From Laetmonice hystrix (Eukaryota): DNA of 64,000 bases. Location of the stretch: assembly GCA_965235115.1 (NCBI GenBank), contig OZ249436.1, forward strand, positions 10,728,001 through 10,792,000. Direction: 5' to 3'. The notes under the pieces were generated by a model, which was given only the letters and a program-made list of their open reading frames with translations, searched no databases and was not told the DNA's origin. Positions 1 to 60,595 of the stretch are shown here, one piece after another (the first letter of the stretch is position 1; each line of letters opens with the position of its first letter). The translations under genes and the position numbers were made by a program.

Positions 1-1337
1 CAATTTATTTGCCTTTCACATTGTACAGTTGATCATTGAGTTTTTTATATATCACTAGAGTGAGCTCTTGATATACTAGTGTCATCTAAGTAGTTAAGGA
101 AATTCGCATGAAGAGGCTCTTAATATGTAGTAATGAGGCCGAAATATAACTTATCTGGCTTAGGAAGGCCATTAAAACTACAAGAGAATTGAGTTTGAGT
201 TTTTTCACTGACATTTTTCGACCCCCCAAAAAAGAAAGCAAATAATAGTTTACTACATTGTATATGCCCTTTACGCTTGATGTATGCGTTTAGCCTACAT
301 TAACGTAGCGGCTTCACTGTCCGACGAGTATATGCGAGAGTATGATAAAACACGACATGACGCAGCACATCCTGTTATAATCGTCCATTGAGTGAAGCCA
401 TCTCCGCCTAGTGTCGAGCTTGGGACAGTCAGTTTCCCGATTATATCAACTCTTGGATGGCATCCCCAACTACGACAAAATACCCCACGTTACCTGACTG
501 GGTGGGATAAGCTACCCTGGCGATGGTGGTCACATCCAATCTCACTTGGGCCTAGGTATTTGACACTGCCTAATAAGTTTTATAATAGCTCATGCAGGTT
601 TCCTTGGGAAGTATGGACACCTAGAGCGACACTGTCACTCGTGAGCCCCAAGCGATAAGAGGGTCCACTTGAAGGTGACTGGAATACGACACTAGATGGC
701 CTGGAGCATGTTCTAACGGATGACAGTCTTGTGGCGTTAATGATAACCGACGTCATGATGCCAATCTGATCAACTTACTTTTTCAGGCGGTATTATCTGA
801 TAGTGGCTTCGAAGTTGAGGAAAATAGACGCTAGATGCTTGATTCACAAACGCAGCCAGTGCAGTTCTATGTGGTTGTATTGTTTACATTTCCAAATCTT
901 TCTTTGATTTGCTGTCAGATCAGGATGTATGCCAACGTATTTATAAATACGTTAGAACTGCATGTGATTTAGACCCTGGTTGTTACCGGGTACGGTATGT
1001 TGATTTAATAAGCTTTATCGATCTATATGTCTATACTTTTTGTGTCACTTTAAAGCTACATGACACTGGCCCGGTGGTTCCCACAAAATAACCATCGTGG
1101 TACAACAAACATGTTTTCACCAAATATTATTTCCGTTCAGAAAATCGGAAAGGATGTTTAAAGTAGAAAATACATAGATTCAATGGGGGTTGTGTTTTTT
1201 TTCTCGGGCTAACGAGATCATGCCTCCGCTAGACTTTCCTTCGTCTTGGTTTCCCTGCTGCTAGCAGCTGCGGTGGTGGATCCGCATAAGTTAGCTTCAT
1301 TTGAGGCCATGAGATGGCAATGTAGCAGGAGCCTATA

Positions 1338-3607
1338 CTCTGTCCGCGCTAACTTGAGCTCGAGGCGGGGTCTCATTACCGGTGGGGGTTGGCCCAGTGC
1401 TGACGTAACCCAGTACCAGCCAATGGGGGCAGGGAGGGGCCCGTCGGTCAAGCCATTAGCAGCAATACTCATATAAACAAAATAAAGCCACGTGTGGCCA
1501 CTGTGCATGAGCTGAGATGTAGATCTCTATGCATGTTTCCAGCTGTTTTTATGCCAGTCGATTGATTACTTTCATGTGTTATACAATCACCTCTCTTAAC
1601 CAAGGGATATCTGGGATATCATGTACACACAGTAAGGGTTCTTTTTTGTGCTACCTCAGAGGTAGATCACAGAATTTCACACATCAGCATATCTTATTAC
1701 GTGGTGTTCTCGTCGTCATTTTATCGCAAATATCCGGTTTTAATTTGGAAAGAGAGGAGGTGTAAATTGATCCAGTCAGGAGAATTGAATAATAAAATGG
1801 GGTGGTTTACATCAAAGAAATGTGTTCATTAACTAGCAACCACACAGAAGGAGTGGGAATAACGATTAAATGAACCATCAGGACCATGCCCTCACTTGTT
1901 ATCAGACAGCTACTGAATACAAAGCTCAGACTTCGCAACTTCTATCCAACATGTCTGCATCTAAAATAAGGAAAGGCAAGGCTTTAGGAAGTCAAGCAAG
2001 AGAGCTGGTGTTTAATGCTATTCAATATTTTAAGAAAGAAACCCAAGAAAGTGGAGGTAGTTGGATCAACAAGACTGCTGAGTGCCTTGGAATAGGTAAA
2101 GCCAGTGTGAAGAGGATCCAGAAGGAAGGAACCACCCAAACCGTCTTCTCCACACCTGGTAAGAAGAGGAAAATCAGGAAGCCCAGGGTAGTGGAACTGG
2201 ACGACTTTGATAAGTGTGTCACAAGGAGGCTGGTTCACAATTACTACATGGACAAGACCAAAGGATTACCTACTGTCAGGAAATTACTCCCTATCGTAAA
2301 GCGAGAAACACAGTTTACTGGAGAAAAAACCTCACTTCACCAAGTTTTGCTTCGTATGGGATTTAGGTGTACACGTTCGAATGGCAGGAGGTTCTTGCTT
2401 GAACGATCTGATATCATCAGTGCCAGGCATTCATTCCTACGCAAGATGAGGGAAAATAGGAACTCTCCCAACCCAAGGCCTGTTATTTATCAAGATGAGA
2501 CATGGCTTAATGCACATCACAGTATGTCGAAATCATGGCAGCTCCCAGATGAACCCACAGCAGAAAGGCAACTTGGGTTAAAGATTCCAGAAGGACAAGG
2601 AAGCAGGCTCATCATCAGTCATGCAGGAGGTGAGCAGGGATTTGTTGCCAACGGGTTGCTTCTCTTCAGGGCCAAGCAGAAATCCGGAGATTACCATGAC
2701 GAGATGAATGGCGACAACTTTAAAAAATGGTTTCGGGAGAAACTTCTACCCAATATTCCACCCAACTCACTCATTGTAATGGACAATGCTTCTTATCATA
2801 GTATGCAACTTGACAAAGCTCCAACCTCCAACAGCAGAAAGAGTGAGATGCTTAAGTGGCTAGAAGATAAAAATGTTGCTCTCCAGCCTGGTATGTTAAA
2901 AGCTGAACTGTATGAAATGATTAAGTTTGTAAAGCCCAGGGAATTAAAATATGAGATCGATGAAATGGCACGTCACCATGGACACACTGTCGTAAGAACA
3001 CCACCGTACCACTGTGACCTAAATCCTATTGAACTGATATGGGCAAATATCAAAGGACAAGTGGCTAGAAGAAACAAGACTTTCAAGATTGCTGATATTG
3101 AAAGACTCTGTCTTGAAGCAACATCTTCCATCACACCAACTGACTGGCAGAATGCTATCAGGCATGTAAGGAAACTGGAAGATGATTACTGGAAGAGCGA
3201 TAATCTCATGGAGGAAAGGGTCGAGGAACTAATTATCTCCATAGATGACACAAGCAGTGACTCGGATTTATCTGACACAGGATCAGAGACAGATACCTCA
3301 GAGGATCAGGATGACATGGGAGTCTACCCCCTTTCATTGTAATTTACGTGAGTTAAATATTTATTTATTTTACCATGTGCATGTATGCTCTAAATGCAAT
3401 ATTGTGTGTCAGGACTAAATCGTGGTAGAGTGTACAGGTTTAGTTACCGTGACCGGCAGCTGGATGCCTGTGGTCAAACCATGTGCTGCCCCCTACACGT
3501 GGGTAGTCTCCAGCACCCCACTCACCCATTGGCCGGCAGCCGGCAGTAAACAAAGATGACCCTGCATATCATGAATATGTATTAGGCTCAAGTTAGCGCG
3601 GACAGAC
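1338..3607 (+). mobile_element. Full-length IS630-Tc1-mariner DNA transposon, Sailor (DD82E) type
   Basis: Left end TATA|CTCTGTCCGCGCTAACTTGAGC (1338-1359) and right end GCTCAAGTTAGCGCGGACAGAC|TATA (3586-3607): 22-bp TIR differing only at the terminal base. TATA on both sides; a single DDE transposase ORF inside. Confidence 0.92.
1870..3342 (+). CDS. DDE transposase, DD82E (IS630/Tc1/mariner group, Sailor); true start may be the ATG at 1951 (MSASKIRKGK)
   Basis: Uninterrupted 490-aa ORF. N-terminal HTH-like region (KTAECLGIGKASVKRI) and basic NLS-like PGKKRKIRKPR. Catalytic motifs IYQDETW, IVMDNASYH and PPYHCDLNPIELIW, with 82 residues counted between the second D and the E. Acidic C-terminal tail. 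Confidence 0.93.
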   Translation: MNHQDHALTCYQTATEYKAQTSQLLSNMSASKIRKGKALGSQARELVFNAIQYFKKETQESGGSWINKTAECLGIGKASVKRIQKEGTTQTVFSTPGKKRKIRKPRVVELDDFDKCVTRRLVHNYYMDKTKGLPTVRKLLPIVKRETQFTGEKTSLHQVLLRMGFRCTRSNGRRFLLERSDIISARHSFLRKMRENRNSPNPRPVIYQDETWLNAHHSMSKSWQLPDEPTAERQLGLKIPEGQGSRLIISHAGGEQGFVANGLLLFRAKQKSGDYHDEMNGDNFKKWFREKLLPNIPPNSLIVMDNASYHSMQLDKAPTSNSRKSEMLKWLEDKNVALQPGMLKAELYEMIKFVKPRELKYEIDEMARHHGHTVVRTPPYHCDLNPIELIWANIKGQVARRNKTFKIADIERLCLEATSSITPTDWQNAIRHVRKLEDDYWKSDNLMEERVEELIISIDDTSSDSDLSDTGSETDTSEDQDDMGVYPLSL

Positions 3608-4282
3608 TATAGACGAATATCCCAACCGTGCATGCATTTTACTTACCGTCCTTACCTTGATGACACTTGGCGCCCCGACCCCTATAGAAACCCCTCTCTG
3701 TCAATTCGGGTACTTGTATTATGTGGCCCATCTAAACGTACCAACTCTTGCCAGTGGCTGCATTGATCAGGCCGATGGGTCACAATGAGAAAATGTAATG
3801 AGAAATTGTATCTTGAAGGGATCATAGATGAGAACGGTACGTCAGGAAGGCATGGCACGTACAGTGTATATAATAGGTTGTTGGCTCGCAAGCATCAGAT
3901 ATTGGTTAACCCATCTTTGCTCACGAAATCCCGGCACCTATATTCAAAGAAACAAGTCGACTAAGAAATGAAAGTAGAGATCAGGATTGAGGTGTGGGCG
4001 GATAATGTATGGCTTTCATTTCTTTATTTCTACATCTGAGGTTCAATAAACGAGTTAGCGTCGAGTACATGGATGAATTTAAACAACCAATAACCGTTCT
4101 TAATTCGAAAGACATGTTTTCTACTTTACCAGCCTATAATGTGATCTTCCACCAAGTGTAAAGTTGCGTGTTGCGTAGCTCTACTTCGATATATTTCCAA
4201 TTATTTATGGCTGCCGCACTTTCCCTGTCCTGATTGGTCAGTTCCCTGTCACGTGATCACAGGTAAAAACTAATATTGCACG

Positions 4283-4318
4283 GAAAGAGTAATATTGACC
4301 AGTCAATATTACTTTTTC
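4283..4318. repeat. AT-rich palindrome, probably the core of a decayed non-autonomous DNA element
   Basis: GAAAGAGTAATATTGAC-CA-GTCAATATTACTTTTTC: 17-bp arms with one mismatch. Confidence 0.55.
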
Positions 4319-5686
4319 ACTGCCGTCAAGTGTTCTCACCCCCGCGTGCAAATAGGCTCTTAGGCATTCTTAACGTAAGTTTAATATAACAGCCTGGAGG
4401 GGTGACAGCGTATGATAGACAGGAAAAGTGCGATAGTCATAAAATAAAACAAATATGGCACTTGGTATCGTGCAATATGAAAGTTTATGGCACTCTGGAA
4501 ACTGATATTGCACGACGCGAATTTGTATAATATTTTGTATATATGTCAACATCACCTTTCCAGTTTCACAAGGCTAAATAAATGCTTTAAGGTGTAAATT
4601 TCACTTTAAGAAGTTCTTTACTACAAGTAAGAACAACTTCTGATATCGAGGTTTTGCGGCGGAAAGGGTTAAGATCTAGTGGAGACGTCAGGCAACAGGA
4701 CTGGATACTGGGACAGGGACCGCCAAACAGTGGCTGTAATTACTTACATACACATCCTGTAAACACTGGTCGAGTTGCACGATTGGTGAGCACAGGGCCA
4801 TTGGCTGAAGCCGCGACTACTCAGTTGTTGGTATAGTAGACCTCCATCCGTAGTACACCACTGGTAAATAGAGACATTCTACAATTGCATTGATCAAAGA
4901 CCACGATAACCTTCACGTTTTAACGAATCAACAATCTAGCCAGTTTTGTAGCCAATATGCATTTGTTGAATATTTAGAAAGAAGCTATATAAAATTCCTA
5001 ACCTAAAATAATTCAAACGTTGAACAGCCTCTGAGATATGTCCCGTTATAATGAACTACGTCATTCTAGAATGATCATTATATTTAAAAGGTCAAAACTC
5101 TATCTCATTTTGTTTCTCTCAATGAGATGATAACCTGTGTTTCCTTACCGCTATCCCCTTTCCCTGATATCGGTGGGTCGTCTGGGTTGTTTGGTTGTCA
5201 TTCAGATCGCTGTTTACCTCCGGACTCTAGTTATGACCGTCATAAGTTGTCATTCCACCACGCACAGCCTCTGTAGGGACCCTGCATACATAGAGGCATA
5301 AAGTCTTTTATTGTATAAAAAGGTTTGCATATTGTGTTCTCCTGCGTACTTTGTTCTCCTTGTTCTCCTGCATGTACTTTGTTCTCCTGCATGTACTTCT
5401 TATTAAACCCATAGAAAGTCTCGTTCCTATTCCCTTTTATGGTACTGTGTGCATTAGCTCTTTTCGTTATTGCCTGGCTTGCTTTCTTACTGTTTTCATT
5501 TTTTCATTTGCAGAATTTGAGATTTCTTTGTTCCAACCCGTTTGTTAAACAGACCTTCAAACTACAGTTATTAACCCTTCCAGCCTTTCCTGTGCGGTGG
5601 CTCGTTTGTTGGGTTGAGTTCCTACAATACTGTTTATTTTTCCAATGACAACTCTACCTGGTGCCCGCAGCCGAAGAGTTCTCTTA

Positions 5687-22628: not shown

Positions 22629-22974
22629 GGTCGCAGGTGTTACATTGTTATTTCCCAAAGAGTGTATTTGTGTGTCTGCATTCTTAAATTTCAACCCAAA
22701 CACCTTTACAGGGTCATAAAAAGATGGCGAGTCCATCAGACGATTGGTTTGGCAGAAGATTTGCCGGAGGGCTCTGAGTGAAAAGATGGAAGTGGAAGAG
22801 GCTACAAAGCCGATCGAACCCGTTAACTATTTTGTACGGTCGTAAAATGAAATTGATTACAGCTTGTGAGACGGCATTCTCTTTGGATGGGACAACCAGA
22901 ATACCAATCAAACAAATTACTAAAGAAAAAGGTTAGAACGAAACTGGGTTCAATTTAAAAATGAATTTTTACTT

Positions 22975-24224
22975 CATGAACTATCCGTCTGCAGCTGTCA
23001 GGGAAGGAGTGACCGGTCACTGCATGAACTATCCGTCTGTAGCTGTCAGGGAAGGAGTGACCGGCCACTGCATGAACTATCCGTCTGTAGCTGTCAGGGA
23101 AGGAGTGATCGGTCACTGCATGAACTATCCGTCTGTAGCTGTCAGGGAAGGAGTGGCCGGTCACTGCATGAACTATCCGTCTGTAGCTGTCAGGGAAGGA
23201 GTGACCGGTCACTGCATGAACTATCCGTCTGTAGCTGTCCGGGAAGGAGTGGCCGGTCACTGCATGAACTATCCGTCTGTAGCTGTCAGGGAAGGAGTGA
23301 CCGGTCACTGCATGAACTATCCGTCTGTAGCTGTCAGGGAAGGAATGGCCGGTCACTGCATGAACTATCCGTCTGCAGCTGTCAGGGAAGGAGTGACCGG
23401 CCACTGCATGAACTATCCGTCTGTTGCTGTCAGGGAAGGAATGGCCGGTCACTGCATGAACTATCCGTCTGTTGCTGTCAGGGAAGGAATGGCCGGTCAC
23501 TGCATGAACTATCCGTCTGCTGCTGTCAGGGAAGGAGTGACCGGTCACTGCATGAACTATCCGTCTGTTGCTGTCAGGGAAGGAGTGACCGGTCACTGCA
23601 TGAACTATCCGTCTGTAGCTGTCAGGGAAGGAGTAACCGGTCAATGCATGAACTATCCGTCTGTAGCTGTCAGGGAAGGAGACCGGCCACTGCATGAACT
23701 ATCCGTCTGTAGCTGTGAGGGAAGGAGTGGCCGATCACTGCATGAACTATCCGTCTGTAGCTGTCAGGGAAGGAGTGGCCGATCACTGCATGAACTATCC
23801 GTCTGTAGCTGTCAGGGAAGGAATGACCGGTCACTGCATGAACTATCCGTCTGTAGCTGTCAGGGAAGGAGTGACCGGTCACTGCATGAACTATCCGTCT
23901 GTAGCTGTCAGGGAAGGAGTGGCCGGTCACTGCATGAACTATCCGTCTGCTGCTGTCAGGGAAGGAGTGACCGGTCACTGCATGAACTATCCGTCTGTAG
24001 CTGTCAGGGAAGGAGTGACCGGTCACTGCATGAACTATCCGTCTGTTGCTGTCAGGGAAGGAGTGACCGGTCACTGCATGAACTATCCGACTGTAGCTGC
24101 AGGGAAGGAGTGACCGGTCACTGCATGAACTATCCGTCTGTAGCTGTCAGAGAAGGAGACCGGCCACTGCATGAACTATCCGTTTGTAGCTGTCAGGGAA
24201 GGAGTGACTGGTCACTGTATGAAC
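22975..24224. repeat. 48-bp minisatellite, about 26 copies
   Basis: Unit CATGAACTATCCGTCTGTAGCTGTCAGGGAAGGAGTGACCGGTCACTG, containing the perfect 14-bp palindrome AGTGACCGGTCACT. Two units carry a 2-bp deletion. Confidence 0.97.
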
Positions 24225-25154
24225 TTCCCATCCGGCAGACGGAGCTCTGGAGTGTCTTGAAGACATCGACGAGAGACCACCTCCCATCTCCCCAAGCCCA
24301 CCCCAGTCCACCCAATTATGACGAGTCCATACCGAGGGATCACTCAAAGCCGTTCATTTCTGGTCCATGTATTTCTTTTACGACTCCCTCTCCAGGTCCT
24401 GATTTAAGGGGGTTACTTCAAAGGGGAGATAGACACTCGAGAGTGCAGTAGAAGACAGCAAAGACGACGCATCCCTGTGTGTTGATTACCCAGAATTTAC
24501 CCACGATACCATGTATATGAGAAAGACCCCAAATGTGACCTATCTTCCTGCTGGCCAGTCTAACTATAAGCCTGTTCTGGGGATAAGAACTTCCATATTT
24601 CGGAAGAAAAAGTTTTTTTGATACTTCGTATGTCATATTGAGTAGACATTATATAATTCGTAATGCTTCCTCTAGTTTTATGCGTGTATCAATGTACTCC
24701 AGGCATAGAACCCGTCCAGACGGCCCGGAAATAAAATAATCGGAATCTAACATCAGATGTCATTATCTTCGCCATTTTTCGCTTTATTCTTTATACAAAA
24801 ACATGTCACTGCAACCTGGGGGTCGTTTCACTAAGAGCTCGTTTTGTGCGAGCTAAAATCCCTGGTAAATAGTAAGCAAACTCCCGTAGCTACATATATA
24901 CAAGGTCATATACGAGGAAATGTTGGGGATACGAGCTCGTATGAAACGGGTCCGACGCAGTCTTACTTCAGTACGCATGACAAGCGTCTCGCCCCAAAAT
25001 ATGCGTCAAATTGGAGGGGGTAACCATAATTTTGCCATATTTCGGCGGTTTTATTCCGGAATATGATGCTAAAGAGGCATTAAATTTTCTCTACCCATTG
25101 TCCCAGCAACCGAAATTAATAAATTCTACAAAAACTTTTGAAACATATACTTAA

Positions 25155-26620
25155 AGTAACGCAGCCATGAACTCAAAATGTGCATATATCTTAAAGAAAA
25201 GACCATCGCCAGTCTGTACAGGCCAGGCACACATGCCGTGATATTCTAAGCAAGTTAAAAAATATTTAAACACAATTGGTGCTCAGATAGTTAAGATATA
25301 GGCACTTTAGTGCCGGAGGCTTCTTACATCCTGCTCAGCTGCATGGTGAAGGCCGCCATTCACCGTCTGCTCCTTGGGCTAATCTCAAACTGCGCATGGT
25401 CGCCCTAGGCGAGCATGCGCAGCACGACTGCTCTCCAGTTTGGGAGGAACTAAAAACTGACGCACCTGTTGCGTTGATCGATTTGGAAGGCAGCGAACGT
25501 TGACAGCTTATAAGCAAAATTTGTTAGAACATAGACGAAAACCATCGATAGTGATGAGGAATGGCTAGAAAAAGCCTACCGATGTCCGGGGACATATCAG
25601 GGTGGACACGGATCTGGGCAGCCGTGGGTTTCGGCCGCCTGCATTCGTCCCACTCGGATTCGTGTCATGTTGACGGGAGCTCATGGGCCCTGAGGCCCGG
25701 CGCCACTCTGGCTACGACCGCGAGCAATGGCAGCTAGTGTCAGCATGGTCAGCACAGACCTGCTGCGTTTAGTTGTGACTGTGACTGTGACTGTGGGACT
25801 GACCCCCGTCGATTTGCCACCCGCCTCGGCTGCCTTTAGCCTAGTATAGCCTAGCCCTGGCATGCAAAAGATTAGCCCTGGAACGTCACTTCCGGTCAGC
25901 CCAATAGCAACAAATGGCTGCGCTGCTGAAGCCAGTGATTTTGACACGGTTGTCATGTTCAACATATGACTTCTTGGAATAGGGCGACATTTATTTCCAA
26001 CCACTACTCTGAAAGGTGAGTATATATAGAGGCCTTGCAGCTGTCCAAATGTGATTTTTGACTGGACTTCTCCTAAACTAGATGTCACCGTGTTCGTTTT
26101 TGAGTTATTACCTGAGAAAAAAAGTGTGTTTCGTGAAAAATTGTAATTTTTGATCATTTTTATTTTTTGATACTGTGTCACAAAAACGATAGAAAAATAG
26201 AAGAAAATACTTTGTATTGTTGCGTTAGAACCTAGTTACCTTTATAACGCTGGTAAAAAATACATTAAGAAAGATTTGTGCCACCTAGCGACTAGTTTCC
26301 GGGTGACAAGTGAAGTGAGTGAAATATTTCATGAACATTGAAAAAATTCAGATTAAATTGGCTCCAACAGTTTTTCTTATTTTTTCTGTCTCCTTACACA
26401 ATGCCAGATTGGTATGCAAAATTCCATCATGCCTTTCCGACCTACTTTTTTCAAAAAAATGCCTTGAAATTAAAAAAAAAATCACGGTTTTACCTTTTCA
26501 AGCTAGTAACCGATTTAAAATAATCCTTCTTCGCCATCAAAACATATGCCATCTAACTCCTAATCCGAAATCGTCGCACATGCGCGAACAGGATACGCGC
26601 AAAACCATGGATCCATTACC
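25155..26620. mobile_element. Older TTAA-flanked (Kolobok-like) non-autonomous element hosting a nested insertion
   Basis: TTAA|AGTAACGCAGCCATG at left and CATGGATCCATTACC|TTAA at right (imperfect TIR, RR...YY termini); interrupted at 25195-26074. Confidence 0.55.
25195..26074 (-). mobile_element. About 880-bp Kolobok-like non-autonomous element, copy 1
   Basis: Near-identical reverse complement of 47185-48067. Ends TTAA|AGAAAAGACCA and TGGACTTCTCCT (right TTAA degenerate). Confidence 0.88.
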
Positions 26621-28695: not shown

Positions 28696-30456
28696 TCACA
28701 CTGCTGTGAGTCTATCTATTTCGCACTGCATTTCGACGTCCTTCTCGGGTACTCGGTCCATTCTCCTCTCGCCCACAGCACGACCTTTGGCGGTCAGAAA
28801 GCGGCAGACATCGGCCATCAATTGGACGACCTCAAAGAGGGTCATCACCGAGATGCCGATCCACAACCCCAGCTGGCCTCCAATATCGGAGATCAACCGA
28901 ATGGCTTCGTAGTCGGGCGCTTCTGTAGTTTTAATGACGTTACTGTCAGCTATGTGGACGTTTAGTCGTGAAATGTGATCGGCCAGTTCGTTTTGGGTAC
29001 CATTGGCAAACTTCTTTTTCAATAACCTTTTCTTCTTCTTTGGCATCAACTCGAGAAATGCCGTGATGGTTGTGTAAAAGGCTGTGTGCTCTTCGGACTT
29101 TTCCGGGATGGTGGACAGACTGTAGGAGGAGTCGTAGACAATATCATTACACGGTGGGTAACAATTACATCTGTCCATGGCATCCGGGTCTCGTGTTGTC
29201 ATGTTATCATAGACGCCTTTTCGGCATTTCAGCTTGTTGCTCCATGTTCGTATAGGTTCCATACACTGCGTTATATTGTAGTCCACCATGCACTCATCAG
29301 GCATCCTCGGTAGTTCAAAGCAGTATGGGTGATTTTTCAGTTTTTTCGGCACAGAAATCCTGTTATCAATACATCCACACGTGTTGATTATGTTAGTTTG
29401 CAGGCAGTCATTCTGACACCCAATCAACGTGTAAAGATGTTCTCCATCATGTTCCGAGCTGGAGCAGTTCCCATGGGGGTGAGATATTCGCGAGTTTTCT
29501 CGCGCTTTGACGCCTATTGTTACAGAAAAGCCTGGCGCAATGTCAAATCCTTCAGCAGTAGGGTGTGGTAGGGTGTTTGGGGAGTGAATGACTACTCTTG
29601 CTCCTCTCCCACTGGCCAAGGCCGAGTCGGATTCCTCTACACCAGGGACCAAGTAGTCGTAATTCGAGTCAATTGTCAATTGGCCTGCACTTCCAGTGAA
29701 GAGCAGCAGCGAGAGCCCATATTCTATTCCTTGAAGCCGATTTGATGTTGACCGTTGCATGAGATTGGGTTTGAAGGTAAAGCAATTGAAATAGTAAGGG
29801 TCAAACAATTTCGCAAAAACGTGGGATATATTGCATTTTTCATTCATAAAAGTGCAGCTAACAATAAAATCTCTCAGTTGAATTCCACCTTTTGAAGCCA
29901 TATCAGGTCCTAGGTTGGCAATAAGGCCTAACCTTGAATATACTTCTAACATGTCCTCGCTTGTCTTCTCCCATGGAATATTCATCATTAGATACTGCTG
30001 AAAGAAGAACGAAGAGTACTCCCAGAACATTTCGTATTTTCTTTGGAAGGCGCCCAAGAATTCGTCGTCGTCTTCATCCTCAGTGATATTGCCTGCGACA
30101 TCTAGTATACTTTCAAGACGCTCTACAATGAGAACGTCGAGGTGTTTAGTGTTACATACAGACACCCAGGGAAACTGCACGGGCCTCTGTACGATTTGCA
30201 CGTTCACTTTCTTCGGGTAGCTGTAGTAGCGCTGGAGGAGTATAGCCGTCTGCCAGAAGAACATCCCGAAGGCCGCGAAGCAGATGATGGACCAGAAGAT
30301 GCGAGCAGGAACCGACTGGGCATTGATAATTCGAGGAACGCCATGCATGGACGTTGCGTAGGCGAACTCGCGGAAAACCCTGTGAACGTCGGTCCCCCGT
30401 CGGCGACGGTTGTTGTCGGCCAGGCCTCCGCGGGCGCTGTTGTGCATGTTCGACAT
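28696..30456 (-). CDS. DEG/ENaC (amiloride-sensitive Na+ channel family) subunit, FaNaC/MGIC-like; 586 aa, single coding exon
   Basis: Pre-TM1 HG motif (ATSMHGVPRII), TM1 (IFWSIICFAAFGMFFWQ), FPWVSVCN, FDPYYFNCFTF, GLSLLL, GARVVIH..P, Cys-rich thumb (CQNDCLQ..IINTCGC, CNCYPPC) and TM2 LISDIGGQLGLWIGISVMTLFE with a GxS filter. The track's start at 30483 is a non-ATG codon inside a splice acceptor; the first ATG is at 30456. Confidence 0.93.
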   Translation of the reverse strand: MSNMHNSARGGLADNNRRRRGTDVHRVFREFAYATSMHGVPRIINAQSVPARIFWSIICFAAFGMFFWQTAILLQRYYSYPKKVNVQIVQRPVQFPWVSVCNTKHLDVLIVERLESILDVAGNITEDEDDDEFLGAFQRKYEMFWEYSSFFFQQYLMMNIPWEKTSEDMLEVYSRLGLIANLGPDMASKGGIQLRDFIVSCTFMNEKCNISHVFAKLFDPYYFNCFTFKPNLMQRSTSNRLQGIEYGLSLLLFTGSAGQLTIDSNYDYLVPGVEESDSALASGRGARVVIHSPNTLPHPTAEGFDIAPGFSVTIGVKARENSRISHPHGNCSSSEHDGEHLYTLIGCQNDCLQTNIINTCGCIDNRISVPKKLKNHPYCFELPRMPDECMVDYNITQCMEPIRTWSNKLKCRKGVYDNMTTRDPDAMDRCNCYPPCNDIVYDSSYSLSTIPEKSEEHTAFYTTITAFLELMPKKKKRLLKKKFANGTQNELADHISRLNVHIADSNVIKTTEAPDYEAIRLISDIGGQLGLWIGISVMTLFEVVQLMADVCRFLTAKGRAVGERRMDRVPEKDVEMQCEIDRLTAV

Positions 30457-30468
30457 GGATGCTGCTGC

Positions 30469-30490
30469 CTGCAAGAATAACAACGATAAA
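30469..30490 (-). other. 3' splice acceptor 12 nt upstream of the channel ATG
   Basis: Minus strand TTTATCGTTGTTATTCTTGCAG|GCAGCAGCATCCATGTCG: pyrimidine-rich tract plus CAG. Confidence 0.7.
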
Positions 30491-33400
30491 TATTTATAGG
30501 TTCGCTAACAGCCGACAGAGATATAACTGGAGGCAATTCTCTAATTATATGCGCAGTGTATAGGCCCATTATTGCATTTTTGTCATTTGTTCTTTCGTTT
30601 CCTTGAATTGCGACCTCGCACGTGGAACTTCCCGAAAGAAAGTGAGGGGGAGGGAAAAAACAACGTTCAGGCTATAATGTACTTCAGGGTAATAACCGTT
30701 ATGGATATGATAATTTACAATGTTATAAACGCTGACTGTCGATAAGTGAACCGTGATCAATGGCGTTAACCGTGTTGCTATAACATCAACTATAAAATAG
30801 TGGTCTAACTCAACTGTTTCTATCTTCGTAGACAGTGCCGACAAATAATCTTAGATTGGAAAGTTGGGGCCAAACATTGAGAAAATAAGCAATCAATCTG
30901 AGGGTCTGGCACGGAGATCGATGGACTGAGAGATTTTTTGTGGAGTTTCCGTCTCAATGAATTAGATTTCATACCCGATACATATTGGTGAACGTCAGTT
31001 TTGTTATAAGCCAGCTACTTCTCTCGGTTTGACAATAACGCTTGCAGCATTCTCTAACGTATCTAAGACCATCGAAGCAATGAGGTCCCAACTGAATCGA
31101 CAGAGATCTGCTTCCTTCACAATTCAGTCGTTGTGTATGTGCCTGGTTATGAAGGATAGCTACCACCAATTCGGGGCTAGGGCGACGATAACTTTATCAC
31201 AGTAACCTGCCTAATCTCCCTCACTCTCGACAATCAGCTGAAAGTGTTTTTGGTGTGACATATGCACGATTTGGCCGTCGCGGTGCATTTGGTACATTTA
31301 GATGTGTTGGTGGCAGCTCGAAGGGTCTATAGATGTATAAAACTTTACTCAAGAATAGTTGCATAAATCATCGCGTTAATCATATCCGCGGACGTCATGG
31401 CCTTTCAGAATTCCGGATCCCGGCCCTATGAGTCATAGAAAAATAAATACCATTTTCGCGCCAATATTGACAGAAACTATAAGCTTAAGAGTGTTTTTTT
31501 TCAGGAAGGCCGGCAATTTGATGCAGTTTCTTGCTAGAAGTTACCGTCGGTATTCGATTAGTGCTTGGGGTTGGCAGTGAAACGTCCGACTCGAGACGAC
31601 TGTCTGAAGGAGTTATCCATCTTGTTCCGTGGCACAAGTCTTGGAAAAGAACCCAGTTAACTTGTGTGATCGATTCCAGGCAGGGATACTGTACCGCGGT
31701 GCCTCCCCCATCGATCATGATTCACGGACTACCATCTTTATGCTGCCCTTCATCTAACCGAAAAGTCTGAGAGAGGATACATGCTATTATTGGGTTAGTT
31801 TGCCTATTGTTCTTGAGGTGAAGAATACCACTCAACTATATCCACAGGAGTTTCTTATGATTACAAATCCCGGATCCGCCCCTGAGTTGTAACTATAAGA
31901 TCAACAATACGACTGCCGATTGAAGAAAGACTTGTCCAAATCAAATTCCGTAACATCGTAAACTGCTGTCTTGAAAGTATTACTACAACTACTTTATTCA
32001 GTTCTCAAAGACTCATATGTGTGGGTTATAATCTTTTCGTTTCGAAGGTGCACCTCCGTTTAACATTGAGACAAACAGTGCAAACATAGCATGCGTAACT
32101 TGTGCTTGATGAGAACAACCATCTGGAGAAATTTGCTATAATAGAAGCATTAGCGCCATGTAGGTATAGGCTTATATATTACTGATACATTTGACAAATA
32201 TATATGTACCACTAATTATTCCAAACCTGCAACAGTTGTGCAAGCAGCTCATTTAGACACAGGAAAAATGCAGATTTAGAAACCTGCCATAGACAAACAT
32301 TTCTTAACTATGGTTCGGTGGAGCCGTTACATGAAAGATTAATTTCACTCCATCTTTTGCAGCTAGTGTATTTTATGGTATCAATAGGAGCGATTTCCGG
32401 CAATATATCGAATTTAATCTCAGAGTCACACATAAGATGATTTATGAGCATGCCTTTTGTGAGTCCTCAAATGAAATAGAACCAATCTGAATATTGCTCA
32501 TATTAAAATGCATTGTGAAACATTAATATTCACCTTATAAACATTGGCGATAAGCAGTGTGATTTCCAGTTACGTGCAGATAGACTGGGCTGTATCTTGC
32601 CGATGGATTTAATTAAATTAATTTCTTCAAGGTGAACCAGATACTTGCAGACTTGGAAGTTATTTGTATAAATGATGGATATAGTTTCAGTTAAAACACC
32701 TTCATACAGTTTTTTTCATATTATATCACTATTTTACCACAGCGGACGTCCTCCTGCACTCTGACTAAGATTTCCATCGACTTTTATAAATCTCGACATC
32801 TAATTTATGTAATGCGAAATTGACAGGACACAGTTGAATGTGCGACTCTAGTATTACTGAGAACTTCTAAAGAGGGCATGTTGTAATTCTTTTGTCTAGT
32901 GAATGATATCGTCCTTAAGTCGCCTCGTGTGAAAGACGATCACATATAGGGTCTAAATCTCTTCAGAACAACATGTTTTACACGTGACTGGAACATCTTT
33001 TGGTGAACATCCAGTGAAGCCCTTCTCTGGCTGATAAACATATCTTCTTTTCCCAATTGCGCGTCGACTTTCACAAAATGATAAGCTGATACTCTCGGCA
33101 ATGATGTAACATTCGCCGAGCAAAGATAATATAGATATATTCAAACAGAAAATGAGGCAAAATACGACACGGAGATATCTCGACAGAAAACGTATAATAT
33201 ACATGTATATAAAATATACGTATACTCGAACTTGGATGGGTGAGTGTGAATGATGACTAATTCAGTATAGTAACGGGAGCAGTCTTTATACAGTAATCCT
33301 GTATAAGGATAATACTATACAGTATTAACCAAACACCTCTTCTAATACATATGTTAAATTCCATACCATTTAGAAATCCTCCTTTCAATTGTATTACCGT

Positions 33401-38351: not shown

Positions 38352-38363
38352 GAAATCTATATA

Positions 38364-38571
38364 GTCTGTTCGCTCTAAGAAGAGCTCGACCTCGGCCTCA
38401 TTAAAGCTCTGACCTGCCCCCCTCCTCCCGTCTACCCGCAGCTGGCGTATCACAAGTCATCACCGCCTGTCATTCAAGAATATGACCAAATTTCACGTGG
38501 TTCTGTATTACCCCAAATGAACTAACAGCTTTAATGAGGCCGAGGTCGAGCTCTTCTTAGAGCGAACAGAC
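38364..38571. mobile_element. 208-bp MITE with TATA TSD and Sailor-like TIRs
   Basis: TATA|GTCTGTTCGCTCTAAGAAGAGCTCGACCTCGGCCTCATTAAAGCT (45 bp) and its perfect inverse at 38527-38571, followed by TATA. Confidence 0.9.
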
Positions 38572-39043
38572 TATAGTAAAGACCCATTTTTTACGGAGGC
38601 GTGTATAAAAAAATCTAATTCGGTGAAATAATGATTTTTTTTGTTTCTTTGTACTCCTAAGGACAAAGGCTATCCCCCATAAAAATATTTTGAAAATTCT
38701 AGTGGTCAATCAAATTCCGTCGAACACTCACATTTCCCTTTAAAAGTACTTCTCACCTCTTCCGTGCACCTGCACCGCGTATACAGAAACATGCACTCAT
38801 TACTGTCGTCATATAACTTTTATATCATAATATCGTGACTGACTGACTCTTGGGAAGGACTTCCTTCATCACCTAATAAGACATTAACTGGTTTTAAAGT
38901 CGTATCGGCAGCCATAATGTTGTCTTCAGTTTGGGCGAGGAGCCGGCGCAGACGAATGACGGACTATTCGTGGTGTATGTAATTTAATAAAACAGCTTTA
39001 TTCTCTAGGCGTAAATATTTTGCCATATATGGTATGTTAAATA

Positions 39044-39488
39044 TATGGAGCCCCGGAGGTGACATGCTGAAAATATTTTTTTTAATCCGTGCGCACGGAT
39101 TACTAAACCGTGCACACGGATTACTAAACCGTGGCCATGGTTTAGTAATTCGTGGCCACGAATTACTAAACCGTGCCCACGAATTATTAATTCGTGGCCA
39201 CAAATTAATAAACCGTGCCCACGGTTTAGTAATCCGTGCGCACGGTTTAGTATTAGTAAACCGTGCGCACGGATTACTAAACCATTCACACGGATTACTA
39301 AACCGTGCGCACGGATTACTAAACCGTGCGCACGGATTACTAAACCGTGCGCACGGATTAGTAATTCGTGGCCACGGATTAGTAATCCGTGGCCATGGTT
39401 TAGTAATTCGTGGCCACGGTTTAGTAATTCGTGGCCACAAATTAATAATAATAAATTATTTTCAGCATGTCACCTCCGGGGCTCCATA
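39044..39488. mobile_element. IS3EU-like MITE, copy 2
   Basis: TAAATA|TATGGAGCCCCGGAGG ... CCTCCGGGGCTCCATA|TAAATA: same TIRs as 37978-38351, a different 6-bp TSD and more internal 21-bp units. Confidence 0.9.
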
Positions 39489-39685
39489 TAAATATGTCTC
39501 AGCGTAAGTAATTGTCCACCTCATCACGTCTGCGGTTCAGCAGGTCCCAAACATTTAATGTATAATTACAAGGTAAGTTCAATCGAGGCTAATGAAGTAG
39601 GTTGTAGCACTCGTGTCTTAATAATACATGCAGGCTTGACCTGGTCAGATACATACGGATAGAGTACAAGATACTTTATTCATAC

Positions 39686-45104: not shown

Positions 45105-47184
45105 TTAAAGTAAAAGTATTCGGAAGGAAATGTTGACCTAGAGACGTATTTGAATAAAGAGTTGAGTATGTTATTTTTGGATAACTTGAAACATACATTG
45201 ATGCCTATACTACACACCTTGCAAAGATGATTCTTTGAACAGGATGCCCAAATCCCAAATCCAGTGTGTAAGACGTCCGCATATGTTCATTTGTTGCAGA
45301 AACAGTCTCTAAGACGCTGTCCAGCTGCAAACTGTGCCAACATGCCCATGGCAAACACTTCTTGTTGTCATACACTGACGGGGTTATATCTTATCAATGC
45401 ATGTACTTTTAACAACTATGCATGGAAATTTGAGTCGACCATATACTTGAATATATAATAATTGGCATTTCGAGTGGGGGGGGGGGGGCTTACTGTAGAG
45501 TGCTGATATACGATTCATCCTGGAAATGTTCAAATCATAGACGTACAGGGTATATGTATCACACATATCGGGTACCGCTATTGTTTCAATAGTCTATCGC
45601 CAGGATCATCGCACTCTGGGTATAGGGTTTACAGAAGATCTAATATACGTGGAGGCTCTAGCAAAGAACGGTAATATAATAACATATTATAGGTATATAT
45701 TATATTATATATTATAGTTATATTAGTAAAACATGTAGTAAGAGAACAGTCTAGGTGGGGCGGCACATTATATGTAAACGAGACAAGTTGACCGAGCATT
45801 TATTTGATAGCACATCACAGCCAAGGGCATTATATTGAGTGTGCAGACCACGTCGGCCACAACCAGGGGCATCCTGAGCGGCACCGTGGCTACCACTAAA
45901 CGACCTAAAGTTAATTGACACAATAAGTCGGGAATTCTCAATTGTTACGAGTTCTAACATTGAATTTGGGCGGCGAGACTGTGTGTATACATTGTTCTCG
46001 GGCGACATTTGCGACCCCAATCGCAGGTAATTGACTCCGATACAAACGAGAGCATCCATCACCCAGTCTGAATGCAACCAAGCGATATCTGATTAGTATC
46101 TTCCGCCCGACCTCGGGGGAAGGGGCGTCTAAGCCTTAATATCAGAACCTTTCTTTTCGTAGTCGCTCAGTTGTAAGGGAAACGGAGTCAATAGGACGTC
46201 CTGCTATGACCTTAGTCAGCAAAGTCAGAGATGTATCATTCATACGACAGCAAAAGGCCGGTGCACCTGCCAATTCAAGTCCTTATATGAGGATGAATCA
46301 GGTACCCGAGCAGCGGAAGGTCTGTCTTCAGTCCGGCAAATGCTCCTTTGGACGCACAGGCCATTCACATCTCCGTCTGAAAGGCCGTCAATAGGTGTCG
46401 CCTACGGCACTTCAGACGGAGATAGCGATAGGAGGAGTGGCATGGGTGCTGGGGGCATTCTGAAGACGCTTTAGCCAGAAAGGCCACTGCTATAGTAAAT
46501 GGGCGGGAAAGCATGCTTATTATCTTATTGTTGAGAATTTGAGATTATTTTTCCTGGAAATAGATACGTAGGATATTTATTATTACATCATAGATTAGAG
46601 TCTATAAAAAGTAATCCGATATTGTCGGCCTACGTATATACTATGGCTTTACAGAAGTACTGTTTTTAATGCAGTTGATGACAATACGAAATTATTGGAA
46701 TCTTTAAAATTTAATGGCCCACTGTATACTTGCCGAAGAGAGTGATTATAGCTGTATAGCTGTTTGGGTCACGTAATATACTGATGTGGGGAACTATTAT
46801 GTTCTGTGCGTAGGTACACAATAGTCCGGGCCAACACGGCGTTCAAATATACAGTGGACCTTTAAAATTTGTCGGTGGCATTATTTCACAAGAACCTTAC
46901 TAATATGGGCCGTAAACTTGTGACCGTGGCGAAGACTCAGAATGACTGATCACTAGGCTCAGTCCCGAGGTTACAAACAATTATTGAAAGTGCTGTTCGA
47001 AGTCAAATGTCTACATTTCCAAGGTGTTATTGTAGGCTCTTCCTTTTCCCCAACGCCTAAAACAATATATTTGAATTTTTTGTTTTGTTTTGTTTGCTGG
47101 TTGACCATGTTTCTTGGGTAAAACCATCAACCATTCACAAATCAGTAAACCACCCTTAATATGCCTATCACAAACCTCATTTAA

Positions 47185-48067
47185 AGGAGAAGACCAGTCA
47201 AAAATCACATTTGGACAGCTGCAAGGCCTCTATATATACTCACCTTTCAGAGTAGTGGTTGGAAATAAATGTCCCTCTATTCCAAGAAGTCATATATTGA
47301 ACATGACAACCGTGTCAAAATCACTGGCTTCAGCAGCGCAGCCATTTGTTGCTATTGGGCTGACCGGAAGTGACGTTCCAGGGCTAATCTATTGCGTGCC
47401 AGGGCTAGGCTATACTAGGCTAAAGGCAGCCGAGGCGGGTGGCAAATCGACGGGGGTCAGTCCCACAGTCACAGTCACAGTCACAACTAAACGCAGCAGG
47501 TCTGTGCTGACCATGCTGACACTAGCTGCCATTGCTCGCGGTCGTAGTCAGAGTGGCGCCGGGCCTCAGGGGCCAAGCTCCCGTCAACATCACACGCATG
47601 CACCAATCCAAGTGGGACGAATGCAGGCGGCCGAAACCCACGGCTGCCCAGATCCGTGTCCACCCTGATATGTCCCCTGACATTAGTAGGCTTTTCCTAG
47701 CCATTCCTCATCACTATCGATGGTTTTCGTCTATGTTCTAACAAAGTTTGCTTATAAGTTGTCAACGTTCGCTGCCTTCCAAATCGATCAACGCAACAGG
47801 TGCGTCAGCTTTTAGTTCCTCCCAAACTGGAGAGCAGTCGTGCTGCGCATGCTCGCCTAGGGCGAGCATGCGAACTTTGAGATTAGCCCAAGGAGCAGAC
47901 GGTGAATGGCGGCCTTCACCAGCTGAGCAGGTTGTAAGAAGCCTCCGGCACTAAAGTGCCTATATCTTAACCATCTGAGCACCAATTGTGTTCAAATATT
48001 TTTTAACTTGCTTAGAATATCACGGCATGTGTGCCTGGCCTGTACAGACTGGCGATGGTCTTTTCTT
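47185..48067 (+). mobile_element. 883-bp Kolobok-like non-autonomous element, copy 2
   Basis: TTAA|AGGAGAAGACCA ... TGGTCTTTTCTT|TTAA; near-identical inverted copy at 25195-26074. Confidence 0.9.
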
Positions 48068-48979: not shown

Positions 48980-50480
48980 ACACGCGCATAGATCCGCATC
49001 CTCACACATTTTGACATACAGCCGACACAAGGACGGAGACAGAGGGAGGGTCACGTGACTCCAACATTTTGTTTGATCCGTGTTGTAAGCGGTCTCGGCC
49101 TATGTCCGCCACTTGATTCATGATTGAACGCTTGAGTTCTCTCGCCATATGGTTCCGACCCAGACACATTTAAAACCGAGTCTAAATTCGAATCAGTGAA
49201 GACGATGCGGATGAAGATGCGGATCGGCGGAGGGGTTCAAAGGGGCAAGAACCCCATAGTTCTTTCTCCTGTCTTCATAATAATTGAGACTTGGATGCCT
49301 TTTTGCAATGTTTTCCTGGTGGAAGCCCTCTATCGGGTATCCTGGACCCGCCTTGGGATTTACTGTACTACAGAATTCCCGGAATTTAGCACACGGAATT
49401 TAGTGCAGTGAAGTTTGACTTCACCTCATAATGAAGTGGTGGCATGTGTAACTATGAATATTTCATAACCATTATAATCTGATTTAATTTTCAATGAATC
49501 TTCGCAACGATGTTTAAAAAATAGACTCTGATAATAATTAGCATACTAATGATAACCGTTTTAATAATTAACTAATAGTTATTTATTTCGTTTCGGTCGT
49601 CAATTTCTCCGATCTAAGCTAGCCAAAAATATTACGGGTTGGATTTCCAGACCTTGTAAGCTCAATGCTGCGTGCCAAGCTTGATTTCTTTGTCCATATA
49701 GTAATTCAAAATTCTTAGTTTTGGCGAGGACTTTATCAACCTGAAAAATCTTCTCTCAGATGAAATTATTCATAATTAGGCCTATTGTGTTAAAACACTT
49801 CCGTGTGAATGAAGCTGTAATACAATATGAGAACTATTCTTGTTAAATTCTGAACAAAATTATTCTCTGCTGTAAGCTCTCAGCTCGAATAAAGTTGGTC
49901 GAAAGGGGCTAGGCCTCTCATTTGGCATTTCTTGTACATACTACGTGTATGTATATAGTAGTTGCGAAAATTAGGCCTACGTCTGGCATGCTAAACTAAT
50001 GATCTAAATCACTGGCATTCTTTTACGTTCTTTACAGGATATTATCCCCATTCATTTTGTCCCTCGGTTGGCAGCTCAGATTTTCTTATCCCTGATTAGA
50101 TGGACGCATGCAAAATATGCCACGAGACTATTGATATGAATAACACCTCCCCATATACCCTCGGTCAAAGCATTAAGCTAAAAATCTATACTTGAAAAGA
50201 CATGGGGATATTTTTAGTGGGGCCATGTCTCCTATTCGCGCCCCGAGATTGCCATGGAGGATGACAGAGAGGGTTGTGGGTAATCAGAATTGTGCGCGAC
50301 ATGAACGCCATCCCAAGTCGCACGGGGACTGTCTGATCATGGGACCAAGGCAGGTTGTCAGTCGCATATACGACAATGCCGTAATAAGATGCAGCACAGT
50401 TATTTGATACTGAATCGATTGTCATGCGGGTCCCAGAGGAAGGCTGGCACGGCGGGCTCAGCAGAGCTGTGCTCGGCCAA

Positions 50481-52493
50481 AGTAGCTGTGTGTGTACTGG
50501 CGGGACGCTCGGCCATGGTAGCCGTGTGTGTAGTGGCGGGACGCTCGGCCATGGTAGCCGTGTGTGTACTGGCGGGACGCTCGGCCATGGTAGCCGTGTG
50601 TGTAGTGGCGGGACGCTCGGCCATGGTAGCCGTGTGTGTGTAGTGGCGGGACGCTCGGCCATGGTAGCCGTGTGTGTGTAGTGGCGGGACGTTCGGCCAT
50701 AGTAGCCGTGTGTGTGTAGTGGCGGGACGCTCGGCCATGGTAGCCGTGTGTGTGTTGTGGTAGGACGCTCGGCCATGGTAGCCGTGTGTGTAGTGGCGGG
50801 ACGCTCGGCCATGGTAGCCGTGTGTGTGTTGTAGTAGGACGCTCGGCCATGGTAGCCGTGTGTGTAGTGGCGGGACGCTCGGCCATGGTAGCCGTGTGTG
50901 TAGTGGCGGGACGCTCGGCCATGGTAGCCGTGTGTGTGTAGTGGCGGGACGCTCGGCCATGGTAGCCGTGTGTGTGTAGTGGCGGGACGCTCGGCCATGG
51001 TAGCCGTGTGTGTGTAGTGGCGGGACGCTCGGCCATGGTAGCCGTGTGTGTGTAGTGGCGGGACGCTCGGCCATGGTAGCCGTGTGTGTGTGTGGGTGTG
51101 TGTGTGTAGTGGCGGGACGCTCGGTGTGTGTGTAGTGGCGGGACGCTCGGCCATGGTAGCCGTGTGTGTGTAGTGGCGGGACGCTCGGCCATGGTAGCCG
51201 TGTGTGTGTAGTGGCGGGACGTTCGGCAATGGTAGCCGTGTGTGTGTAGTGGCGGGACGCTCGGCCATGGTAGCCGTGTGTGTGTTGTGGCGGGACGCTC
51301 GGCCATGGTAGCCGTGTGTGTAGTGGCGGGACGCTCGGCCATGGTAGCCGTGTGTGTACTGGCGGGACGCTCGGCCATGGTAGCCGTGTGTGTGTGTGTA
51401 GTGGCGGGACGCTCGGCCATGGTAGCCGTGTGTGTGTAGTGGCGGGACGCTCGGCCATGGTAGCCGTGTGTGTAGTGGCGGGACGCTCGGCCATGGTAGC
51501 CGTGTGTGTACTGGCGGGACGCTCGGCCATGGTAGCCGTGTGTGTGTTGTGGCGGGACGCTCGGCCATGGTAGCCGTGTGTGTAGTGGCGGGACGCTCGG
51601 CCATGGTAGCCGTGTGTGTGTAGTGGCGGGACGCTCGGCCATGGTAGCCGTGGGTGTGTAGTGGCGGGACGCTCGGCCATGGTAGCCGTGTGTGTGTGTA
51701 GTGGCGGGACGCTCGGCCATGGTAGCCGTGTGTGTGTAGTGGCGGGACGCTCGGCCATGGTAGCCGTGTGTGTGTAGTGGCGGGACGCTCGGCCATGGTA
51801 GCCGTGTGTGTGTAGTGGCGGGACGCTCGGCCATGGTAGCCGTGTGTGTGTGTGTGTAGTGGCGGGACGCTCGGCCATGGTAGCCGTGTGTGTAGTGGCG
51901 GGACGCTCGGCCATGGTAGCCGTGTGTGTGTAGTGGCGGGACGCTCGGCCATGGTAGCCGTGTGTGTACTGGCGGGACGCTCGGCCATGGTAGCCGTGTG
52001 TGTGTGTAGTGGCGGGACGCTCGGCCATGGTAGCCGTGTGTGTGTAGTGGCGGGACGCTCGGCCATGGTAGCCGTGTGTGTGTAGTGGCGGGACGCTCGG
52101 CCATGGTAGCCGTGTGTGTGTGTAGTGGCGGGACGCTCGGCCATGGTAGCCGTGTGTGTGTAGTGGCGGGACGCTCGGCCATGGTAGCCGTGTGTGTAGT
52201 GGCGGGACGCTCGGCCATGGTAGCCGTGTGTGTAGTGGCGGGACGCTCGGCCATGGTAGCCGTGTGTAGTGGCGGGACGCTCGGCCATGGTAGCCGTGTG
52301 TGTGTAGTGGCGGGACGCTCGGCCATGGTAGCCGTGTGTGTGTAGTGGCGGGATGCTCGGCCATGGTAGCCGTGTGTGTAGTGGCGGGACGCTCGGCCAT
52401 GGTAGCCGTGTGTGTGTAGTGGCGGGACGCTCGGCCATGGTAGCCGTGTGTGTTTAGTGGCGGGACGCTCGGCCATGGTAGCCGTGGCGGGAC
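50481..52493. repeat. Compound minisatellite: near-constant 28-bp core plus variable (GT)n, roughly 50-55 units
   Basis: AGTGGCGGGACGCTCGGCCATGGTAGCC followed mostly by (GT)4-5, range about 3-8, with one longer run near 51082. Confidence 0.97.
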
Positions 52494-52992
52494 ACTCCAC
52501 ATGCCACTTTCGATGTGACTGCCTTGCAGAGACTACATCTCGTGTAGTTTTATGTATTGCCATTGTGTTACAATAAATTAAAAAAAAGTTTTGGCGTGTG
52601 CCTACCCTGGGATGGGGCTGAGGGTGGGGGTAGCATTCCTGCGGCGGAGAACGGGGGGGGGGGGTCGCATTTCATGCGCTGAGAAGACCCTGAGACGCTA
52701 TACATATTCTGTCATATTAAAAAAAACTCAAGAGAATGAATTCGGTCAGGCATTTGGAAGAAGCAGCTGATGCCAGCTAGCGTATTTCATTATTTATTAA
52801 AGTTCCAGACTGGTAATTGATAAATTGAATCAGCACAACCCATCACGTGTGCATTATTAAGTGAGGCTATGACGTCTGCTTTGAGGCACCAACTATAGAT
52901 TTAATACGGGCGTTGTCCCGCGAGTTCTACTGATGTACTATTCCACAGTCCTGCAGTGTACCGCCCCACAGAACTGCAGGCACGGATCCAGC

Positions 52993-59704: not shown

Positions 59705-60583
59705 GGGCCTGTTTCTCGAAAGCGTCGTACGAGTTACGCCATGCGTATCTTATCGTTGGTGTTTCTCAACGGCTGCGCAACTTTGCGCCGTTGCGTAAAT
59801 CAGGTCTAAAGTTACGACGACCAGTGATTCTGAGTGGTTTGTGGAAAGTGACCATTGACCAGTGAAGCAGGAAAACATTGGGTAGGTTAAAAGACATGTA
59901 TACTCAATATAAGTCCAAATTATGGGTAGAAAAGTGCTAGCAGTAAACTTGATTTTACTTTGATTTTCCTCAATGTAGCATCATTTGCTACACTGAAAAA
60001 CGATGAACATTATTGTCATGAATCTGACGTAATCGAACATAAACTATACATAGAACAGGAAAATGAGAGAGATATAAATTTATCGCTTTACTGATAACGA
60101 CATTTGGTACCGTATTAATGAATTTGTATCATTTGAATGCACTATCGTACCCCTAGTTTCACTATGGGCTACTCTTGTTCAAAATAATGAACAAACATCT
60201 TAATATGTCAGAGACAATTCTTATGTTCATTTCTAATGTGTACCTCTGATTTTCCCCAGAAAGATAATATGCACCACCACGTCACTGATTTTTATACACC
60301 TCTATCCCCTGTCCTTAGACCTCCCTCTCATGTGTTGGCCACTTCGAACTGGTGAAGCTATTTCAATGACAATAGATTGCCATGGAAACGCACTTATTTG
60401 ACCTCTTTTTTGACGCCACCTAGTGTGTCATTACAGTACCCTGTTATGCCCAAGTCCTCAGGTTAGGTCTTGCGTAAGTACCTCTCTAGAAACCATCTTA
60501 CGCCATGACTTATGCCATTCGTAATGCCTTGCGTAAATTCTTGCGTAAGTGTTGAACTTACGACACCTTCGAGAAACAGGCCC
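59705..60583. mobile_element. PIF/Harbinger-like non-autonomous element (CWG-type target)
   Basis: TTG|GGGCCTGTTTCTCGAA ... TTCGAGAAACAGGCCC|CTG; subterminal TTACG/CGTAA repeats at both ends. Confidence 0.8.
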
Positions 60584-60595
60584 CTGGTCGTTACA

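Follow-up and report, generated by a model that had tools for sequence, protein, structure and literature searches.

Sailor elements are the closest described relatives of the transposon studied here. Shi et al. (2021; PMC8533490) assigned to this group a 4-bp TATA target-site duplication (TSD) on the basis of sequence logos, regarded it as a main difference from Tc1/mariner, and built upon it a changed TSD-binding motif and a smaller number of target sites. Their table also includes the pairs TACA/TACA, TATT/TATT, TAGA/TAGA, and TACT/TACT. In the accessible part of that source, no domain was found in the spacer between the second catalytic aspartate and the glutamate (D2-E spacer), and no empty sites, such as those examined in this study, are described. 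A second informative system is ISY100, which has the end ta|TAGT, 24-bp terminal inverted repeats (TIRs), and a TA duplication in vitro, and leaves TATATA upon excision (Feng and Colloms 2007; PMC2170065). These three features of its ends are shared with the element described below; its host is bacterial and its transposase is described as smaller than those of eukaryotic members (PMC2170065). A literature search, including the accessible parts of PMC11544213, PMC10045372, and PMC10379824, returned neither an experimental study of Sailor nor a corrected TSD; its scope did not extend to subscription journals and Repbase, where TA may already be in use.

In this study, a Sailor element was analysed in a window of Laetmonice hystrix DNA (the whole stretch under analysis, 64,000 nucleotides), where an initial annotation had placed an intact, possibly active copy flanked by a TATA duplication. 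With a probability of roughly 0.88, the locus holds a Sailor (DD82E) cut-and-paste DNA transposon of 2274 bp that is intact, was likely mobile until recently, targets TA, and duplicates TA alone, the inner TA of the flanking TATA being the first two bases of the TIR. The element itself belongs to a known group; what is new is the corrected TSD and the corrected ends for Sailor. As TA is the default for ITm elements, the result is not surprising, but it is useful as a correction.

Structure of the element

The features of the locus are as follows (window coordinates).

1334-1335, no strand: left target-site duplication, TA (a single TA lies between 1333 and 3612 in the empty allele)
1336-3609, plus strand: complete Sailor (DD82E) transposon, 2274 bp (the joint of the empty allele skips 2276 bases, i.e., 2274 plus one TA; six near-full-length copies in the genome)
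1336-1359, plus strand: left TIR, 24 bp, starting TAC, with C at position 3 (1338) versus G in the right TIR
1360-1520, plus strand: subterminal region retained by deletion derivatives, holding TGACGTAA at 1401, CCAAT at 1420, and TATAAA at 1472
1870-3342, plus strand: open reading frame (ORF) of 490 codons, with a likely start at 1951 giving a 463-aa transposase (Pfam DDE_3, AF2 model, fold matches)
2494-3033, plus strand: catalytic triad D209, D305, and E388 (490-aa numbering), with a D2-E spacer of 82 aa
2812-2952, plus strand: D2-E spacer insertion, predicted to form two helices joined by an extended linker, possibly HeH/LEM-like
3586-3609, minus strand: right TIR, 24 bp, starting TAG when read inward
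3610-3611, no strand: right target-site duplication, TA (empty allele)

Under the published boundary convention, TATA is indeed present at both flanks, as had been annotated. By the empty allele, the element runs from 1336 to 3609; the earlier boundaries of 1338 and 3607 were 2 bp short at each end, and the TIRs, previously given as 22 bp, are 24 bp long. The inverted arms at 1333-1359 and 3586-3612 have a complementarity of 96%.

Most structural features agree with those of Sailor, i.e., a single ORF of 323-676 aa (here 463 or 490), short TIRs (24 bp), a total length of 1.4-7 kb (2274 bp), a D2-E spacer of 78-111 residues, mostly 82 (82), and a low copy number (PMC8533490). The published consensus motifs around D1, D2, and E, namely I/VVYLDET, VIIMDNA, and HCELNPIEL (PMC8533490), are matched by IYQDET, LIVMDNA, and HCDLNPIEL. 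The spacer and these motifs bear out the assignment to Sailor (DD82E). What differs from the published description is the 4-bp duplication, as empty sites hold one TA, and the position of the TIRs, which start with TA(C/G), two bases farther out than in the published convention (PMC8533490). Because the TATA rule also fails in prokaryotic Sailors and in the Timema records of Shi et al., it is read as a mis-stated family feature and not as a reason to exclude the element. The empty sites give the TA target and TA duplication typical of ITm elements, and the protein has the corresponding N-terminal helix-turn-helix region (helical N-terminus; HTH_33 in 25 of 100 homologues) and RNase H-like DDE domain (DDE_3; Mos1 and Sleeping Beauty folds). 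Its 82-residue spacer places it outside Tc1/mariner sensu stricto, in which the spacer is DD34-41E/D.

An asymmetry of the terminal base had been noted earlier. The bases are correct, C at 1338 and, read inward, G at 3607, but they occupy position 3 of the TIR and not its terminus. The TAC start is common to the left ends of L001, L002, L004-L006, L012-L014, and L087. More generally, young full-length and 890-bp copies have C at TIR base 3 on the left and G on the right, and older derivatives mostly have G at both ends. The difference arose once and was then passed on through further insertions; since it was carried through later jumps, the transposase likely tolerates it.

The promoter-like motifs in the subterminal region occur where they had been reported, but their pairings are no commoner than chance: in the window, CCAAT-N35-65-TATAAA was found twice (2.26 expected) and TGACGT-N5-35-CCAAT once (1.17 expected). 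The motifs were therefore rejected as evidence.

Transposase and D2-E spacer

The uninterrupted ORF, the residues D209 (in QDE), D305 (MDN), and E388 (PIE), and the exact distance of 82 residues between the second aspartate and the glutamate were all confirmed. DDE_3 was recognized in the protein (Pfam, E 1.8e-11). In 116 of 121 aligned rows, the query included, fewer than 10 residues precede the column of the second ATG, and the protein therefore likely starts at 1951, as judged from this alignment. The D2-E spacer measures 81-84 residues in 120 of the 121 rows and exactly 82 in 87; one row has DNE. Among the best 120 of 1287 database matches, DDE_3 is present in all, the named proteins are from insects, and the closest are 59-64% identical. 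The absence of a near-identical homologue among these 120 gives no support to the suggestion that the element could serve as a marker of horizontal transfer.

In a quick tree, of which the sole outgroups are six IS630 rows on very long branches and which holds no Tc1, pogo, or Gambol rows, the protein groups with L102, P0001, and P0003 among DD81-82E proteins, together with the published record L145. The latter transposase (contig JAACPN010000008.1, Table S6 of Shi et al.) is 34% identical to the window protein over 418 aa. The AF2 model has a mean pLDDT of 89.8, and its best Foldseek matches are Mos1 (E 7.5e-9) and Sleeping Beauty (E 3e-8). Sequence identity to these Tc1/mariner transposases is 11-16%, their spacer is of the DD34E/D type versus DD82E here, and the two-helix insertion is an addition in the present protein. 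In the IS630 elements sampled, the spacer has 37 residues. All invariant family residues are present in the protein; differences from the homologue consensus that characterize the family occur at C72, Q243, V336, and T377, and R103 is private to the window copy (K in L003, L004, and L005).

In the AF2 model, the spacer contains helices at 297-306 and 317-327 (463-aa numbering) connected by a 10-residue linker. Of 100 homologues, 24 gave sub-cutoff matches to HeH (PF12949; best E 3.9e-6), which fell at the insertion in the cases inspected, and 12 gave such matches to Ish1; PF12949 did not match the present transposase. When inserts were isolated, 5 of 31 had a sub-cutoff HeH match and 11 a match to Gemin6_C. 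A Foldseek search with the insert (single-sequence model, pLDDT 69) gave no match at E 0.001, the best Z score in the fold search was 3.4, to unrelated chains, a PDB sequence search with an insert profile gave nothing below E 0.26, an Atlas search gave no usable match, and a literature search for a SAP or insertion domain found nothing. The spacer insertion is tentatively predicted to be a two-helix module, possibly HeH/LEM-like, the HeH reading being based on the sub-cutoff matches. A HeH/SAP-like module that contacts DNA is a lead with roughly even odds.

Copies in the genome

A DNA search of the genome (G000) gave at least 62 matches, with 40 of 155 candidates scored. These include at least six near-full-length copies, several truncated copies, and derivatives that internal deletions have shortened to about 890 and about 300 bp. 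Compared with the window copy, L004, L003, and L002 carry 5, 7, and 8 substitutions, and L005 and L006 carry 45 and 79. The 490-codon frame is open in four of the six full-length copies (L001, L003, L004, and L005), is interrupted in L002 by a stop (codon 208) and by two inserted bases, and is broken in L006. In a seventh copy (L007/L087), the frame is open and two LINE-type insertions lie upstream of it. The copies differ in their flanks. The family is young, dispersed, multi-copy, and mobile, and is not a domesticated gene. The proposed check of genome-wide copy number and identity thus found a multi-copy family, and the view of the window copy as young holds, given the 5-8 substitutions to three other copies and the polymorphic insertion.

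Several further observations were made on individual copies. In L087 (G000:C5:35103000-35112999), itself a young copy, the interrupting sequences are a LINE-type element of 5.6 kb, which has frames of 1218 and 480 aa, and a 506-bp piece that shares its start. L008 and L009 (G000:C18) share the same truncation and right flank and lie 585 kb apart; they are a segmental or assembly duplicate and not independent insertions. In L031 (1510-1660), a segment made up of an old derivative's right end and the adjoining flank occurs in at least five tandem repeats. A second Sailor family is represented in the window by a 212-bp MITE (38362-38573) with TA flanks and ends starting TAG, also seen at L091:848-1053. 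Its long relative L102 (G000:C21:16668354-16672025) has a DD82E frame with 63% identity in the catalytic region, and its two ends both read TA|CAG.

Target-site duplication

Empty-site alleles, the search for which had been recommended, exist at the element's own locus. They were obtained from contigs, not reads, of four public runs that represent one sample, possibly the source of the assembly itself; one run (X4) barely spans the region. In the other three (X1, X2, and X3), 1333 is joined to 3610 with 2276 bases skipped and two ambiguous letters. This implies a single TA in the empty allele, and thus an insertion of 2274 bases plus one TA. For L004, a TA duplication predicts 2266 skipped bases with two ambiguous letters and a TATA duplication predicts 2264 with four; the empty joint, found in one of three runs, skips 2266 with two ambiguous letters, its short side being just 23 letters and its source a high-depth repeat. 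Flank comparison among the fetched loci yielded empty paralogues for L002 and L012 alone out of 28 insertions tried. L002 lies in a repeated unit, and both uninserted neighbouring units have one TA; L012 lies in a minisatellite, in which all 10 listed uninserted units have one TA. All four insertions with an empty site thus agree on a single TA, and the TATA duplication of the initial annotation is wrong.

The ends of the copies were collected by the TIR core alone. In 45 of the 57 distinct ends, the outer dinucleotide is TA, and the inner dinucleotide is TA in 27 and CA in 26; this inner pair is passed on as part of the element. In old derivatives, the sequence is TA|CAG...CTG|TA. The older copies here start with CAGT, as do the ends of Tc1. 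Since a pyrimidine precedes the target TA in 40 of the 45 ends, the target is Y-TA-R, which resembles the CTAG preference reportedly shown by IS630. The outer dinucleotides match in 22 of 34 two-ended copies, a set that includes many old copies and was partly selected for TACAG. The left flank of L006 is TC, an exception to TA. The junctions of L003 fit neither the TA nor the TATA model, as the left lacks one T and the right lacks one TA (L003:1495-1502, 3766-3772). Aberrant insertions are reported for ISY100 (PMC2170065), and this near-identical, intact copy may be a similar case.

Likely TA duplication across the Sailor group

The published records were considered as well. In Data S1 of Shi et al., four Timema records begin with TACACCTAA, and the records preceding three Timema headers end with TTAGGTGTA (PMC8533490); the Timema 'TACA/TACA' is an inverted repeat and not a direct duplication. 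In addition, a scan of GTDB genomes yielded 80 prokaryotic Sailor loci, including the published contig of L145. A pyrimidine precedes 106 of 114 prokaryotic ends, and TAGA...TCTA is found in two of the two-ended loci.

For 35 of the 80 loci, the host reading frame across the insertion was assessed; those left out had no clear TIR pair, flanks shorter than 300 bases, or doubtful pairs (L143, L148, L156, L167, and L190). A frame open for at least 100 codons on both sides was obtained five times with TA, twice with TATA, and never with the controls (no spacer or TATATA), most of the 35 loci being uninformative. One of the five TA cases, L198, was dropped because it joins two unrelated genes. TA fits six loci whose halves look like one gene, and TATA clearly fits none. 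With TA, the frame gives an ADP-ribosylglycohydrolase in L183 (profile positions 2-116, then 128-286), CHASE4 followed by HAMP in L176, an IS4 transposase in L178, two HTH halves in L210, IS66 in L151, and 906 followed by 182 codons in L189; in L151 and L189, one half lacks a Pfam match. L158 could be assigned to neither TA nor TATA, and no cross-locus empty site was found among the prokaryotic loci.

For Sailor as a whole, the 4-bp TSD of the literature likely reflects a boundary error, and TA is likely the group-wide rule. A more encompassing reading is that all Sailors duplicate TA at Y-TA-R, that the TATA hallmark is a boundary error, that the real hallmark is a HeH/SAP-like DNA-binding module in the catalytic spacer, and that the window copy is naturally active; taken jointly, this is tentative and rather improbable. 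The single-TA empty sites remove the TATA contrast that set Sailor apart from Tc1/mariner. In practice, a Sailor donor cloned by the published boundaries would have its two terminal bases, at which the cut is expected, mis-assigned.

Some further properties of the prokaryotic Sailors (L143-L222) were observed: one record is archaeal, and several elements reach 2-7 copies in a genome. The quick tree shows them as a single long branch nested within the other homologues, a placement that would be at odds with a prokaryote-first history, but its root is unreliable.

Mobility and alternative explanations

By analogy with the biochemistry of Tc1/mariner and ISY100, binding of the 24-bp TIRs would fall to the N-terminal helix-turn-helix region, and the DDE domain would make its cuts precisely at the 3' ends and, at the 5' ends, 2-3 bases within the element. 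TA would then be attacked by the 3' ends at a 2-base stagger, and host repair (fill-in) would produce the TA duplication. The predicted two-helix module of the spacer may contact DNA. As contigs of one public sample lack the insertion, it is polymorphic and likely recent. The element may still be active today. For a first Sailor activity test, a use that had been envisaged for the locus from the start, it offers an intact frame between corrected ends, an insertion that is polymorphic, and a natural variant of the TIR.

Three other explanations were weighed. TATA could be duplicated as published (PMC8533490), the single-TA empty sites being later deletions or precise excisions that collapsed TATA. 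TATA does stand on both sides, as a 4-base direct repeat, in 9 of the 34 two-ended copies (partly selected for TACAG) and in 51 of 57 two-ended prokaryotic loci, and two of the 35 prokaryotic loci have long open frames with TATA. Such a collapse is nevertheless hard to reconcile with 12 uninserted tandem units and a high-copy repeat that all carry one TA, or with the 8 of 34 copies from the same set that read TACA...TGTA and so have no direct repeat. The frames with TATA also lose weight: in L204, an ATG in the TA frame precedes the insertion by three codons, and in L216, neither half matches Pfam and an ATG closely follows the insertion. A true TATA duplication is accordingly considered very improbable.

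With a TA duplication, the boundaries may be right and the copy or family may still be immobile at present, e.g., when the burst is over or the protein is unexpressed or impaired. The small number of full-length copies, the broken frames in two of six, the private K103R in a basic linker, and the chance-level promoter motifs would agree with this. The polymorphic insertion, the divergence of only 0.2-0.4% among four copies, and the presence of every invariant family residue argue for recent mobility instead, as does the excess of synonymous over non-synonymous differences (5/2, 2/2, 14/7, and 6/3; not independent). Immobility is unlikely on balance. The same synonymous excess and the intact frame could also be expected of a domesticated transposase gene used by the host. 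That the copies are multiple and dispersed, have intact TIRs, and lie in differing flanks makes this exceedingly improbable, and for the locus itself it is refuted by the empty allele.

Other features of the window

On the minus strand, positions 28696-30504 contain an uninterrupted DEG/ENaC channel frame of 602 codons with the FMRFamide-gated FaNaC1 as best match (E 2.6e-126); FaNaC1 (8ON7) is a far better match than the other FaNaC (7YVB), which points to a host that is probably an annelid. A very high-depth repeat at about 4204-4400, with many different loose ends at 4204-4216, is probably the end of another abundant mobile element. The same sequence occurs in opposite orientations at 25681-26235 (minus strand) and 47105-47668 (plus strand), with near-identical translations. 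Lastly, minisatellite arrays at 22924-24451, 38964-39507, 50186-52671, and 60463-61330 give rise to long repetitive open frames.
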